Assembly: GCA_022117465.1 (NCBI GenBank)
Contig: JAHCGZ010000005.1
Coordinates: 7,544 to 71,543 of the forward strand
Direction of reading: 5' to 3'
From: Candidatus Nitrosopumilus limneticus
Lineage (GTDB): Archaea > Thermoproteota > Nitrososphaeria > Nitrososphaerales > Nitrosopumilaceae
DNA: 64,000 bases
Shown here: positions 40,907-52,885 of the stretch, piece after piece
Numbering within the stretch: the stretch's first letter is position 1
Layout of the letters: the number at the start of each line of letters is the position of its first letter
Notes under the pieces: model-generated
Databases searched by the model: none
What the model saw: only the letters and a program-made list of their open reading frames with translations
Told to the model about the DNA's origin: nothing
Translations under genes and position numbers: made by a program

Positions 40907-41590
40907 TTATTTTAATAATAATTTCATGTCAATATTTTTTTTAAAAATTCGATGTAATGAATCATCACTCATATCTTTAATAAACGGAATTGAACCTAAA
41001 ACTTTAATTCCAGTTAAATTTTCTAAATCTTTTTTCAATTGATCAACAGGATAGCCATCATCAAAATTATTAATTATAATTCCTTTAATTGGAATATTAT
41101 ATTTTTTACACATCATTACAGTCATTAAAGTATGATTTACAGTTCCAATCCTACTTCTAGTTACAATAACTGTTGAAAGTTTCATATCTTTTATCAAATT
41201 TGCAACATAGTAATCTTTGAGAATAGGAGTCATAGTACCACCCATACCTTCAACAATCATTACTTCATGAATTTTAGCTAGTTTTTTAAAACTAGAAAGA
41301 ATTAATGAGATTTTTGGTTTTATTTTTAATTTTTTCCATGCAGTATATGGAGATGCAGAAATTGGAAAAAATTGAGGATTAACTAGAGATTCTGGATCAT
41401 TAATTTGAGCGGCATTACATAAAATCTCAACATCTTCAGACTTGAATCCCTTTTTTTGTGCAATACCTGCAGCAAATGGTTTCATTATACCAACATCCAT
41501 GCCCATTTTTCTTAAAGTAATTGCTAATCCAGCAGCGATGTATGTTTTACCTACATCAGTATCAGTTCCAGTAATGAATAATGATTTCAA
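40907..41590 (-). CDS. bioD: Dethiobiotin synthetase
   Basis: FITGTDTDVGKT, MKP, VEGMGG, GTVNHT. Confidence 0.93.
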   Translation of the reverse strand: MKSLFITGTDTDVGKTYIAAGLAITLRKMGMDVGIMKPFAAGIAQKKGFKSEDVEILCNAAQINDPESLVNPQFFPISASPYTAWKKLKIKPKISLILSSFKKLAKIHEVMIVEGMGGTMTPILKDYYVANLIKDMKLSTVIVTRSRIGTVNHTLMTVMMCKKYNIPIKGIIINNFDDGYPVDQLKKDLENLTGIKVLGSIPFIKDMSDDSLHRIFKKNIDMKLLLK

Positions 41591-41771
41591 TATTTCATCA
41601 AAACATCATTCATTGATTAATTCATCGGTTTTTCAAATTAATGATGAAAATAAGGAAAAAAAATTTATCTTCAGAATAACTAGATCAAATAGCATAATTG
41701 AGATATTTTTAGATTAATTATATCAAAATAACAACAACAAATTATTACCTTCTGAAATTTATGAAAATAAC

Positions 41772-43086
41772 TTGAAAGTTCTGTATGGCATCCAAATACA
41801 CAAATGAATGAATGGGAAGAATTGATAAAATAACAAAAGGTAAGGGAATATGGCTAATTGATTCTAAAGGTAACAAAATAATAGATGCAGTAGGATCGAT
41901 GTGGTGTAATGTTTGGGGTCATTCTAATCCTCAATTAATTAATGCAATTACAACACAAAGTAAAAAAATTCAACATTCATCATTGTTTAATCTTACAAAT
42001 GAGCCAATAGAAAAATTAGCGAAAAACCTCACAAGAATTTCTCCTGGAATGAACAAGGTATTTTTTTCAGATAATGGTTCTTCAGCAATGGAAATTGCCA
42101 TAAAAATGGCATTACAGTATTGGAGTAATATTGGAGAAACAAAAAAAACACAAATTGCAACACTAGAAAATGGATATCATGGAGACACATTTGGTGCAAT
42201 GTCAGTTGGATATGTTCCAGAATTTTTTGGAAAATTTAAAAAACAATTATTTTCAACAATTCAATTTCCAGTTCCTAACAAATACAGAGTTCCAAATGGA
42301 ATTACATTAGTAGATTATCAAAATAATTGTTTAGATAAAATTGAAAAAAGATTTTCAAAAAATAATGATATTGCAGCATTCATAATGGAAAGTGGTGCAC
42401 AAATGGCAGGTGGAGTTATAATATATCCACAAGAATTTCAAAGAAAAATTAGTAAATTATGTAAAAAATATAACATATTATTTGTACTAGATGAAATTGC
42501 AACAGGTTTTGGACGATTAGGATCGATGGTACAATATGAAGAGCAAAAAAGTATTCCAGACATTGTGGCTTATGGTAAAATGTTAACAGGAGGGTATCTA
42601 ACAATGGCAGCTACACTTGCAAATAAAAAAATCTATGATTCATTTTCAGGAGAATTTTATGATTGGAAACATCTATTTCATGGACATACGTTTACAGGAA
42701 ATCCAATTGCAGCATCAGTAGCCAATGAAAATATTCTCATGTATGAAAAATATAATTTAATTAAAAAAATTCAAAAAACATCAAAAATATTTTCTAAATA
42801 TTATCAAGAAATTTTAGATATTGACATTGTTGGGGATATAAGACACAAGGGAATGCTTATGGGAATTGAACTGGTATCAAATAAAGAAAAGAAAATTCCA
42901 ATTCGTACAAAAAAATCAATCAATAAAGTATTTTTTGAAGAGGGCAAGAAACAGGGAATTTATCTTAGAACACTTGGAAATATTGTGATGTTAGTACCAC
43001 CGTTATCTATCAAGGAAAATGAACTTGATATGCTACTATCAAGAACAATTAAGACTATTCAGGCAGCAAAATCAAAGATAATCTGA
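41772..43086 (+). CDS. bioA: Adenosylmethionine-8-amino-7-oxononanoate aminotransferase; N-terminus affected by apparent indels
   Basis: WHPNTQM upstream in another frame; SMWCNVWGH, SDNGSSAMEIA, GYHGDT, DEIATGFGR, GKMLTGG, HGHTFTGN. Confidence 0.93.
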
Positions 43087-43087
43087 C

Positions 43088-43117
43088 TGTTAACTGCTAA
43101 AAATTCAGGGGTTAACA
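43088..43117. promoter_or_regulatory. Inverted repeat TGTTAAC-N16-GTTAACA upstream of bioB (BirA-operator-like)
   Basis: Exact 7-bp arms, about 11 nt upstream of TTTATAAA (43129-43136) and the bioB ATG at 43158. Confidence 0.65.
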
Positions 43118-43157
43118 ATTACCATATTTTTATAAATGGAATAAAAAATATTTCAAC

Positions 43158-44135
43158 ATGAGCAGTTTGGAATTCATTAAAGAATGTCAAGAAAAAGTAT
43201 TTTCTGGAGAGAGAATTTCAACAGAAGATGCAAAAAATTTATTCAATGTACCAGAAGAAGATCTTAAAGAATTAGCAAAGTGTGCCAATGAAATAACTAG
43301 AGAATATAATGGAAGTAAAGTCGATGTTGAGCAATTAAATAATATTAAAAAAAATGCATGTAGTGAGGATTGCACATTTTGTGCCCAATCAGCATTTTTT
43401 GATACTGGTATTGAAACATACCAACTACCTACACCAGAGATGGTTGTAATTAAAGCAAAAAAAGCAAAAGATGAGGGAGCAGAATCATATTGTCTAGTTG
43501 CAGCATGGAGACAACCATCATCAAAAGATTTCATAGAGGTATGTAAAATTATAACACAGATAAATGAGAAAGTTGGAATTAATGTTGAGTGCAGTTTAGG
43601 TTTTCTAACAAAGGAACAAGCAACAAAACTAAAAGAACTTAAAGTAAAAAGATATAATCATAATTTAGAAACAGCAAAATCCAAATTTCCAGAAATTTGT
43701 ACAACTCATACATATCAAGATAGACTGAATACACTTGAAATTGCAAGAGAAGCTGGATTAGAATTATGCACTGGAGGAATTATTGGTTTAGGCGAAACAA
43801 GAGAACAAAGAATAGAATTGACATTAGAATTGGCAAGAATATATCCAGAAGAAGTTACAATAAACATACTAGTTCCAGTACCTGGAACACCATTAGAACT
43901 GCAAGTAAATTTACCTAATTCGGAAATTATCAGAATATTTTCAGTAATACGTTTTCTATTACCAGAATCTGTAATTAAAATTTCAGGAGGTAGAGAAACT
44001 AACTTGGATGATTCAGGAGAGGAATTACTGCAAAGTGGAGCAAATGGAATTATCACTCAAGGATATCTAACAATGGGCGGAAATGATGCTCAAAAAGACC
44101 GTAAAATGATTGAAAGAATTGGTCTTGAAGCATAA
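43158..44135 (+). CDS. bioB: Biotin synthase
   Basis: CSEDCTFCAQS radical SAM motif, YNHNLET, CTGGIIGLGE, ISGGRE. Confidence 0.95.
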   Translation: MSSLEFIKECQEKVFSGERISTEDAKNLFNVPEEDLKELAKCANEITREYNGSKVDVEQLNNIKKNACSEDCTFCAQSAFFDTGIETYQLPTPEMVVIKAKKAKDEGAESYCLVAAWRQPSSKDFIEVCKIITQINEKVGINVECSLGFLTKEQATKLKELKVKRYNHNLETAKSKFPEICTTHTYQDRLNTLEIAREAGLELCTGGIIGLGETREQRIELTLELARIYPEEVTINILVPVPGTPLELQVNLPNSEIIRIFSVIRFLLPESVIKISGGRETNLDDSGEELLQSGANGIITQGYLTMGGNDAQKDRKMIERIGLEA

Positions 44136-45249
44136 ACTCAATTTCATCGATGTAGAGTTAGATAAAATTAAAGAGAATAATTTATACCGAAAATTGCAAT
44201 ATGGAAAAGCACAAGGATCGCACATTACAATCAGAAATAAAAAATTAATCAACTTATGTTCAAATGACTATTTAGGAATTCCAATTACAAAAATACAAAC
44301 AAATCAACTCCAATCAAGTTCAAGATTAGTTTCAGGAAACGATGAATCATATAAAAAATTGGAAAAAATTCTTGCAAAACACAAATCACAACAAAATAGT
44401 TTGATTTATCCTACAGGATATATGGCAAATTTAGGATCAATTTCAGCAATAGCAAAAAAAGGAGATTTAATTCTTAGTGATGAATTTAACCATGCCAGTA
44501 TTATAGAATCATGTAAATTATCTGGAGCCAATATATCGATTTACAAACACAATGACATGCATGATTTGAATCAAAAAATAAAAAAACAAGGAAAAAATAA
44601 GTTTATCATTACAGAGGGAGTATTTAGTATGGATGGAGATTTTTCATCATTAAATGAGATTACAGAAATTTCACAGAAAAAGAATGCAATAACAATTGTG
44701 GATGACGCACATGGAGATTTTGTAATAGGCAAAGAAGGAAAGGGAACACCTGAATATTTCAAAGTAGCAAAAAAAATTGATTTGTATGTCAGTAGTTTAA
44801 GTAAGGGATTAGGATCTTTTGGCGGATATGTTGCATCGCAAAATAACGTAATTGATGCATGTATAAATAAATCAAAATCATTTATCTATACTTCAGCATT
44901 ACCATCGTTTTTAGTAGAACATTCTATTAAAAGAATAGAATCAAACAGAGAAATTCAGAAAAATAAATTAGAAAACAACATAAAAAAATTATCAAATGGA
45001 TTAAAAACAATTGGATATGAAATAAATTCAAAAACACAGATAATACCAATAATTGTAGGAGACGAAAAGAAAGCAATGGATTTTGGTAAATTTTTATTTA
45101 AAAATGGAGTATTTGCACAACCAATTAGATATCCAACTGTTCCAAAAAATCAGGCAAGATTAAGAATATCAGTTACTGCATGGCTAAAAAATTCAGAGAT
45201 AGAAAAATCCTTAAAAATATTTGAAAAGGGTTACACGAAATTCTTTTGA
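44110..45249 (+). CDS. bioF: 8-amino-7-oxononanoate synthase
   Basis: NLCSNDYLG, TGYMANLG, NHASII, FSMDGD, DDAHG, SLSKGLG, IRYPTVP. Confidence 0.92.
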   Translation: MKELVLKHKLNFIDVELDKIKENNLYRKLQYGKAQGSHITIRNKKLINLCSNDYLGIPITKIQTNQLQSSSRLVSGNDESYKKLEKILAKHKSQQNSLIYPTGYMANLGSISAIAKKGDLILSDEFNHASIIESCKLSGANISIYKHNDMHDLNQKIKKQGKNKFIITEGVFSMDGDFSSLNEITEISQKKNAITIVDDAHGDFVIGKEGKGTPEYFKVAKKIDLYVSSLSKGLGSFGGYVASQNNVIDACINKSKSFIYTSALPSFLVEHSIKRIESNREIQKNKLENNIKKLSNGLKTIGYEINSKTQIIPIIVGDEKKAMDFGKFLFKNGVFAQPIRYPTVPKNQARLRISVTAWLKNSEIEKSLKIFEKGYTKFF

Positions 45250-51686: not shown

Positions 51687-51794
51687 ATGGCAGAAAGAAA
51701 AAATTTCCTAATATTTGCAATGGGAATAGGAATCATGGGCGCAATAATAGGAGCCATAACTATTATGAATATTATTTCAGATGCACTGAAATAA
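51687..51794 (+). CDS. 35-aa single-TM micro-protein
   Basis: MAERKNFLIFAMGIGIMGAIIGAITIMNIISDALK, translated by hand. Confidence 0.45.
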   Translation: MAERKNFLIFAMGIGIMGAIIGAITIMNIISDALK

Positions 51795-51810: not shown

Positions 51811-51844
51811 GATGGTTAACCACAATATTTTAGATGGTTAACCA
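51811..51844. promoter_or_regulatory. Tandem GATGGTTAACCA boxes, period 22 bp, upstream of the ribosomal protein operon
   Basis: Two exact 12-mers, each containing the palindrome TGGTTAACCA; TTTAATA at 51857-51863. Confidence 0.65.
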
Positions 51845-51889
51845 TAACTAATAGGGTTTAATAGAGGGAATTCGAGATTCGATTTAACA

Positions 51890-52885
51890 ATGGGAGCTAG
51901 AAAACGACATCAACCACGTAGAGGTAGTTTAGCATATTCAAGAAGAATGCGCGCAAAATCTATGGAGGCAAGAATTAGAGCATGGCCAAGTAGATCAGCA
52001 ACTGACGAGCCAAAAATTTTAGCTCATTGCGGTTTCAAAGCTGGTTGTGTACAAATAGTAAGTATTGATGATCGTGAAAAAACTCCTAATGCAGGAAAAC
52101 AATTAGTTAGTTTGGGAACAGTTTTGGTAACACCACCAGTATTAATTTTAGGTATTAGAGGATATTCAAAAGACTATGATGGAATTCATGCAGAATTTGA
52201 CGTGTATGCAGAAGATATTCCAAAATATATTTCAAAAGAAATGACATTCAAAAATAAAGAGGGTGCATTAGAAAATGCAGAAAAGGGATTGAAGAAAATA
52301 AAAGAAATATTTGCCATAGTTGCAATATCACCAAGTGCCGCAGGTCTTGAAATGAAAAAACCATATATTTTTGAAGCAATGGTTAGTGGAGGAGATATTC
52401 AAAAACAATTTCAACATGTCAAAGAATCATTAGGAAAAGAAATTAAAATTGATCAAATTTTTGAAACAGGATCTACAGTAGATGTTGCAGCAATTACAAA
52501 AGGTCACGGATGGCAAGGTGTAATGAGAAGATGGGGAGTTAAGAAAAAACAACACAAGTCTAGAAAGACAGTTAGAGAAGTCGGTTCATTAGGTCCAATT
52601 TCACCAGGATCTATCATGTATACAGTCCCAAGAGCAGGACAAACAGGTTTCCATCAAAGAATTGAATATGACAAAAGAATTATGGTAATGGGTAACACAG
52701 ATAACAATAAATTAAAAATTAATCCCGATGGAGGATTCAAACACTTTGGTTTAGTTAAAGGTGATTTTATTATTTTGAAAGGTTCAGTACCAGGAACATA
52801 CAAAAGATTAATCAAAATGAGAAGTCAAATTAGAAATGCACCACCTAAAGTAATTAAACCAAATATTTTGGAGATAGTAATATAA
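51890..52885 (+). CDS. rpl3: 50S ribosomal protein L3
   Basis: PRRGSLAY, GFKAG, TKGHGWQG, GFHQR. Confidence 0.97.
   Translation: MGARKRHQPRRGSLAYSRRMRAKSMEARIRAWPSRSATDEPKILAHCGFKAGCVQIVSIDDREKTPNAGKQLVSLGTVLVTPPVLILGIRGYSKDYDGIHAEFDVYAEDIPKYISKEMTFKNKEGALENAEKGLKKIKEIFAIVAISPSAAGLEMKKPYIFEAMVSGGDIQKQFQHVKESLGKEIKIDQIFETGSTVDVAAITKGHGWQGVMRRWGVKKKQHKSRKTVREVGSLGPISPGSIMYTVPRAGQTGFHQRIEYDKRIMVMGNTDNNKLKINPDGGFKHFGLVKGDFIILKGSVPGTYKRLIKMRSQIRNAPPKVIKPNILEIVI

Follow-up and report, generated by a model that had tools for sequence, protein, structure and literature searches.

A predicted BirA operator upstream of bioB and a twin palindrome upstream of rpl3 in Nitrosopumilus

The inverted repeat TGTTAAC-N16-GTTAACA upstream of the biotin synthase gene bioB of a Nitrosopumilus genome is very probably a conserved operator, which the biotin protein ligase/repressor BirA is predicted to bind. 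This reading draws on the winged helix-turn-helix (wHTH) of the ligase, the geometry of the signal, the phylogenetic footprint, the drift of the half-sites across genera, and the loss of the site where the DNA-binding domain has decayed. A second palindrome of the same build precedes the ribosomal-protein operon that begins with rpl3. Judged by its sequence, this element is real and strongly constrained, and it resembles a BirA site both in appearance and in evolution. The prediction that BirA binds it as a second site stands at an even chance; it is made plausible by (i) the twin site itself, (ii) its retention together with an intact wHTH, and (iii) the tracking between recognition helix and rpl3 element. 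The initial annotation had read the bioB repeat as a BirA-type operator, a view that our analysis upholds, but had also offered a global factor as the possible binder, and this part did not survive.

The bioB palindrome and its promoter

The window, i.e. the whole stretch of 64,000 nucleotides that was analysed, belongs to a genome of 1.19 Mb with 30% G+C. Its biotin gene cluster comprises the following features:

40907-41590, minus strand: bioD, divergent from bioA
41812-43086, plus strand: bioA, with the TGA stop codon at 43084-43086
43088-43117, no strand: candidate bioB operator of BirA type, TGTTAAC-N16-GTTAACA inverted repeat, 30 bp
43129-43136, plus strand: predicted bioB-bioF TATA box TTTATAAA, 29 nt upstream of the bioB ATG
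43158-44135, plus strand: bioB, biotin synthase with Radical_SAM and BATS domains, ATG at 43158
44110-45249, plus strand: bioF, 8-amino-7-oxononanoate synthase

The left arm of the palindrome (TGTTAAC, 43088-43094) is separated by 1 nt from the bioA stop codon, and the right arm (GTTAACA, 43111-43117) follows after a spacer of 16 nt. Both these coordinates and the distance of about 11 nt to the bioB TATA box, as originally annotated, were confirmed: the gap between right arm and TATA box measures 11 nt, and the palindrome as a whole lies 41 nt upstream of the bioB ATG. In relatives, the TATA box reads TTATAAATGG or CTTAATTAATGG and occupies the same place. Since it is located only 29 nt from the ATG, a leaderless or near-leaderless bioB-bioF mRNA is suggested; both promoter and transcription start are sequence-based predictions. 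The first 26 nt of bioF overlap the end of bioB (44110-44135), so that bioB and bioF probably form a single operon. The overlap also hints at translational coupling of the two genes.

The geometry assigned to the palindrome agrees with the published BirA signal, TTGTAAACC-[N14/15]-GGTTTACAA, as quoted in PMC545781, where N14/15 is equivalent to N16/17 between the 6-mer cores. Fourteen of the 18 consensus positions match, and two of the four differences constitute a symmetric A-to-T variant. A bacterial bioB site with T at the fifth position of the arm is also listed there (PMC545781).

Counting of sites was used to judge how readily such a pattern arises. The hexamer GTTAAC occurs 15 times in the window (14.3 expected) and is thus not enriched; the paired pattern, allowing at most one mismatch, was found twice against an expectation of 0.15. 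Throughout the genome there are 187 copies of GTTAAC, and exactly two pairs with N16 spacing, namely the bioB and rpl3 sites, where ~0.03 would be expected (~187 squared / 1.19 million). Relaxing the scan to N15-17 with at most one mismatch added just two matches, both in coding-looking sequence and neither near a promoter. Each of 41 genomes from the genus contains one or two exact N16 sites; those placed on the map lie upstream of bioB or rpl3, the exception being an isolated match in G021. The longer pattern GTTAACC-N14-GGTTAAC matched in 24 of 121 family genomes, often as two sites ~8 kb apart as in the source genome, while the reversed control gave 0 matches. With no more than two sites per genome, a global factor is unsupported and was rejected; BirA is the best candidate for both.

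No further site of BirA type was found near birA or the acc genes, nor in the divergent bioD/bioA region (41591-41811), for which its absence had already been noted. Because bioA and bioD carry no site, they probably lie outside BirA control, which would then be limited to bioB-bioF. A search for the biotin transporter BioY (PF02632) in five genomes (G000, G010, G027, G081, and G128) returned none; these archaea appear to obtain biotin from synthesis, and BirA therefore would have no transport target there.

The biotin protein ligase and conservation of the bioB site

The source genome encodes one biotin protein ligase, located on contig 7:

G000:C7:45460-46458, outside the window: BirA, biotin protein ligase, 333 aa

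An N-terminal HTH in this ligase had been named as a check of the BirA reading, and it is present. The protein comprises HTH_11 (residues 12-65), BPL_LplA_LipB (94-216), and BPL_C (285-330), and includes the sequence GGRGRSGRKW with the GRGRxGR catalytic loop. It aligns over its full length with the solved structures of two bifunctional ligase/repressors, S. aureus BirA (E = 3e-36) and E. coli BirA (E = 3e-25), whereas alignments to monofunctional archaeal ligases start at residue 80. We assign it to the class II (bifunctional) ligases with a wHTH at the N-terminus. Archaeal bifunctional BirA orthologues have been mentioned before (PMC5397151), and an HTH-bearing BirA is near-universal across Nitrosopumilaceae.

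Phylogenetic footprinting, likewise proposed at the outset, showed that the bioB site is conserved across the family and in other families. Both GTTAAC cores are present in 26 of 29 Nitrosopumilus species, with the spacer sequence free to differ and the outer right-hand A without conservation in most congeners. In the family, the site was found in 55 of 66 genomes (27 genera), spaced by N16 in 35 and by N17 in 19, and consistently located 11-13 nt upstream of a conserved TATA box. The arms drift between genera: they read GTTAAC...GTTAAC in Nitrosopumilus and its neighbours, GTAAAC...GTTTAC in genera g27, g30, g47, and g32, and take the stable hybrid form GTAAAC...GTTAAC in g24, g36, g41, and g48. 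In two other families of the order with an HTH-bearing ligase (four genomes), the bioB arms are TGTAAAC...GTTTACA and TGTGAAC...GTTCACA. At three Nitrosopumilus loci (L008, L010, and L025), other DNA separates bioA and bioB, and hence the operator is found ~75 nt farther upstream of the TATA box, beside a second TATA-like sequence.

The presence of the site follows the state of the ligase. Where the BirA N-terminal domain is absent or decayed, no bioB operator was found (g39, g34, g26, g29, the GC-rich G031, and G050, which belongs to another family). In E. coli BirA, the residues Ser32-Arg33-Ala34 are required for DNA binding, which is abolished by their mutation (PMC5640590). The residue that follows the invariant Ser-Arg in the archaeal recognition helix occupies the position of E. 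coli Ala34, and it varies with the bioB arms: the helix reads S-R-Ala if both arms are A-type, and S-R-Val if at least one arm is T-type. An exception to the match between helix and site is g28, which keeps an altered helix and in which no canonical site was seen.

These patterns bear on two further explanations of the palindromes. In the first, a single non-BirA regulator, shared or global, would bind both of them, and BirA would act as ligase only. The same motif does precede two functionally unrelated operons and, like archaeal activator sites, it lies upstream of BRE/TATA. We nevertheless consider this improbable: two sites per genome do not make a global regulator; the motif agrees with the published BirA signal and shows the spacing tolerance and the drift of half-sites typical of BirA; inside and beyond the family, it accompanies the BirA wHTH and is missing where this domain is lacking; and the wHTH itself is under strong purifying selection. 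In the second, the repeats would form RNA or DNA hairpins, e.g. 3'-ends or terminators for bioA and for the small gene that precedes rpl3. RNA folds of -10.6 and -13.5 kcal/mol (z-scores of -3.2 and -3.4 relative to shuffled sequence) are compatible with hairpins, as are some arm changes across families that preserve complementarity; the arms, however, keep their sequence instead of covarying, a loop of 14-17 nt would be free to vary, and the TATA box stays at a set distance. The hybrid bioB sites, in which two A residues would oppose each other midway along the 6-bp stem and which four genera stably keep, led us to reject a hairpin or terminator function, which is thus very unlikely.

BirA operators upstream of biotin genes are textbook knowledge in bacteria. 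The comparative-genomics BirA signal quoted in PMC545781 reportedly goes back to Rodionov, Mironov and Gelfand in 2002, who are said to have also predicted BirA sites in some archaea; the system described here resembles those predictions in combining a class II ligase with candidate operators at biotin genes. The bioB site would thus extend the classic BirA circuit to ammonia-oxidising archaea, the kind of site itself being already known. In the literature, we found no BirA operator described in ammonia-oxidising archaea and no binding or expression report for any thaumarchaeal BirA.

The arrangement is similar to E. coli bioO/BirA in the arm length and spacing of the inverted repeat, in the variation tolerated at the fifth arm position, in its placement on the promoter of biotin synthesis genes together with a cognate ligase carrying an N-terminal wHTH, and in the number of one or two sites per genome. 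It differs from it in several respects: (i) the promoter is of the archaeal TATA/BRE type instead of a sigma-70 promoter; (ii) the core promoter begins just downstream of the site, which does not fall between -35 and -10; (iii) only bioB-bioF carry the site, and not bioA or bioD; and (iv) a second site is located upstream of a ribosomal-protein operon, a target for which no counterpart was found in the literature searched. The BirA regulon members given in PMC5640590 and PMC545781 are biotin synthesis genes, bioY, and some fatty-acid genes, with no ribosomal-protein promoter among them.

In the bacterial model, little apo-carrier in need of biotin leaves BirA charged with biotinyl-5'-AMP, a form that dimerises and binds DNA; the acceptor protein removes the co-repressor (PMC5640590). 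By analogy, once there is more biotin than unbiotinylated carboxyl-carrier protein to take it up, the archaeal BirA would retain biotinyl-5'-AMP and dimerise, and the winged-helix domains of the dimer would sit on the two half-sites, 22 bp apart from centre to centre and facing the same side of the helix. From the end of the proximal half-site it is 11-12 bp to the bioB TATA box and ~5 nt to the expected TFB-recognition element (BRE). Because it ends so close to BRE/TATA, the bound dimer, which would extend beyond the 28-bp core, may cover or distort the TFB-recognition region and so block the assembly of TBP, TFB, and RNA polymerase at the bioB-bioF promoter.

Sites of dimeric winged-helix proteins beside the core promoter are generally known from archaeal repressors and activators, which act through their position relative to BRE/TATA. 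In archaea, activators use sites upstream of BRE/TATA more typically than repressors do. As the present site ends ~5 nt before the BRE and this position also suits an activator, the sign of regulation is ambiguous, and the case for repression comes from the logic of biotin supply; for bioB, we infer that nothing but repression would be physiologically sensible. In any event, the operator offers a defined cis element and a protein with which repression on an archaeal promoter can be studied.

The twin palindrome upstream of rpl3

The initial annotation had pointed to the same geometry upstream of the ribosomal-protein operon. This was confirmed, and the resemblance is not a coincidence. The features of this region are:

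51815-51842, no strand: twin palindrome GTTAAC-N16-GTTAAC upstream of the rpl3 operon, extended form TGGTTAACC-N14-GGTTAACCA
51857-51864, plus strand: predicted rpl3 TATA box TTTAATAG, 33 nt upstream of the ATG, conserved as GGTTTAWTAGASGG
51890-52885, plus strand: rpl3, first gene of a large ribosomal-protein operon, followed by rpl4 at 52885 and then rpl23

The arms (GTTAAC at 51815-51820 and 51837-51842) enclose 16 nt, and the palindrome ends 14 nt upstream of the TATA box and 47 nt upstream of the rpl3 ATG (51890). Between an RNA methyltransferase gene and the palindrome, a 35-codon ORF (51687-51794, plus strand) encodes a small hydrophobic protein; it falls below the 60-aa ORF cut-off, and its C-terminal part is conserved in relatives.

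The rpl3 site is conserved better than the bioB operator. It is exact in all 24 same-genus genomes and in all 80 further Nitrosopumilus loci, with the consensus TgGTTAACC-N14-GGTTAACgA. Among these 80 loci the 12 core positions show no variation, and 79-80 loci keep the outer T and A, located two bases outside the cores; the spacer is variable and AT-rich. The palindrome was detected in genera g1, g25, g37, g38, and g43, and in none of the other genera and families surveyed. Within this five-genus clade, both the bioB and the rpl3 sites are T-type. One species carries GTAAAC-N16-GTTAAC at rpl3, a change within the known tolerance of BirA. In core, spacing, and consensus fit the element corresponds to a BirA site, while an adjoining biotin-metabolism gene is lacking; it is not a canonical BirA operator, since the genes downstream are rpl3-rpl4-rpl23.

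The bioB operator has been lost in three Nitrosopumilus species and in all five complete g38 genomes, and the rpl3 site has been kept. The BirA helix is intact in these lineages. In g38, the rpl3 site is the sole BirA-type palindrome common to all five genomes; other exact matches are few, confined to single genomes, and fewer than those of the reversed-pattern control. The 64-residue DNA-binding domain of the g38 BirA shows dN/dS values of 0.02-0.06 at dS values of 0.6-1.0, indicating purifying selection. Conversely, in G031 (loci L070, L160, and L161), a GC-rich genome assigned to the same genus, the BirA N-terminal domain is decayed to the point of being unrecognisable and neither palindrome is present.

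Alternatively, BirA may bind at bioB only, and the rpl3 palindrome may be the site of a different protein, with the likeness being convergent or a relic of promoter history. We regard this as a serious if tentative option, rated somewhat below an even chance. Two dimers could, for example, each read the self-palindromic GGTTAACC, two helical turns apart. Each T-type arm is indeed palindromic in itself, although the GTAAAC-N16-GTTAAC variant implies that a self-palindromic arm is unnecessary. The base beside the rpl3 core is G where the BirA signal has T, the rpl3 spacing is strictly N16 where bioB tolerates N16 or N17, and the rpl3 operon contains no biotin gene; against this, the core (12 positions), its spacing, and the TATA distance agree with those at bioB, the genome has no third site, and the 6-N16-6 inverted repeat is an unusual hallmark of BirA. 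A separate rpl3 protein would also leave unexplained why lineages without the bioB operator keep the rpl3 site along with an intact and constrained helix, and why G031 lost the helix together with both sites. The argument from wHTH retention is weakened, however, by the fact that the N-terminal domain of E. coli BirA supports catalysis as well (PMC5640590), so that its retention need not imply a DNA target.

BirA may have gained a second operator on the rpl3 promoter in Nitrosopumilus and four sister genera, which would let the cell hold back the making of ribosomes in line with its biotin status or with how fast protein is being synthesised; we hold this scenario and its opposite in equal balance. 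Holo-BirA would build up when the production of new unbiotinylated carboxylase subunits stops. The scenario is motivated by this accumulation and by the dependence of carbon fixation on biotin: to our knowledge, the sole carbon-fixation carboxylase of these autotrophs is biotin-dependent, and we know of no bacterial stringent response in this lineage. Ammonia-oxidising archaea are among the most abundant microbes of the ocean, serve as a source of B vitamins, and fix their carbon by a biotin enzyme. If BirA binds at rpl3, a cofactor-ligase sensor would be wired to ribosome production, providing a concrete mechanism for growth-rate control and amounting to a stringent-like archaeal control of growth run by a vitamin ligase.

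Single rpl3 elements in other genera

Most other genera of Nitrosopumilaceae possess a single GGTTWACGA between the TATA box and the start of rpl3. Such an element would be a poor target for a dimeric BirA, which favours a different protein at rpl3. At the rpl3 promoters L079, L082, L085, L090, L091, L096, L100-L104, and L112-L116, the sequence reads TATATAATGG-GGTTWACGAC, the single element resembling a BirA half-site.

The state of the single element parallels that of the BirA recognition helix. It reads GTTTAC in 13 of 13 genomes with Ala in the helix and GTTAAC in 24 of 25 genomes with Val, i.e. both agree in 37 of 38 genomes (exception: G098), where these are raw counts that ignore the tree, come from related genomes with two independent switches, and leave out, as do all counts and claims given here, the unpublished genomes G141, G155, and G156. 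In G143, helix and element have both switched independently of its congeners; its BirA shares 61% identity with that of G078 and 48% with that of the Ala-type clade. This tracking, including the independent switch in G143, argues against a protein other than BirA at the rpl3 promoter.

G027 had been considered as a genome without bioB that keeps both the HTH and the rpl3 site. It was dropped as the gap is an assembly artefact, given that bioD sits on a 1.5-kb contig.

The single GGTTWACGA may represent the ancestral form of a link between BirA and rpl3. Inspection by eye of the other genera revealed no evident second half-site 15-18 nt from the single element, except in g42. Here (L097, G110), ~60 nt upstream of rpl3, two GTTAAC arms spaced by N18 flank the TATA box, an arrangement that may be a halfway state between the lone element and the Nitrosopumilus palindrome upstream of the TATA box.
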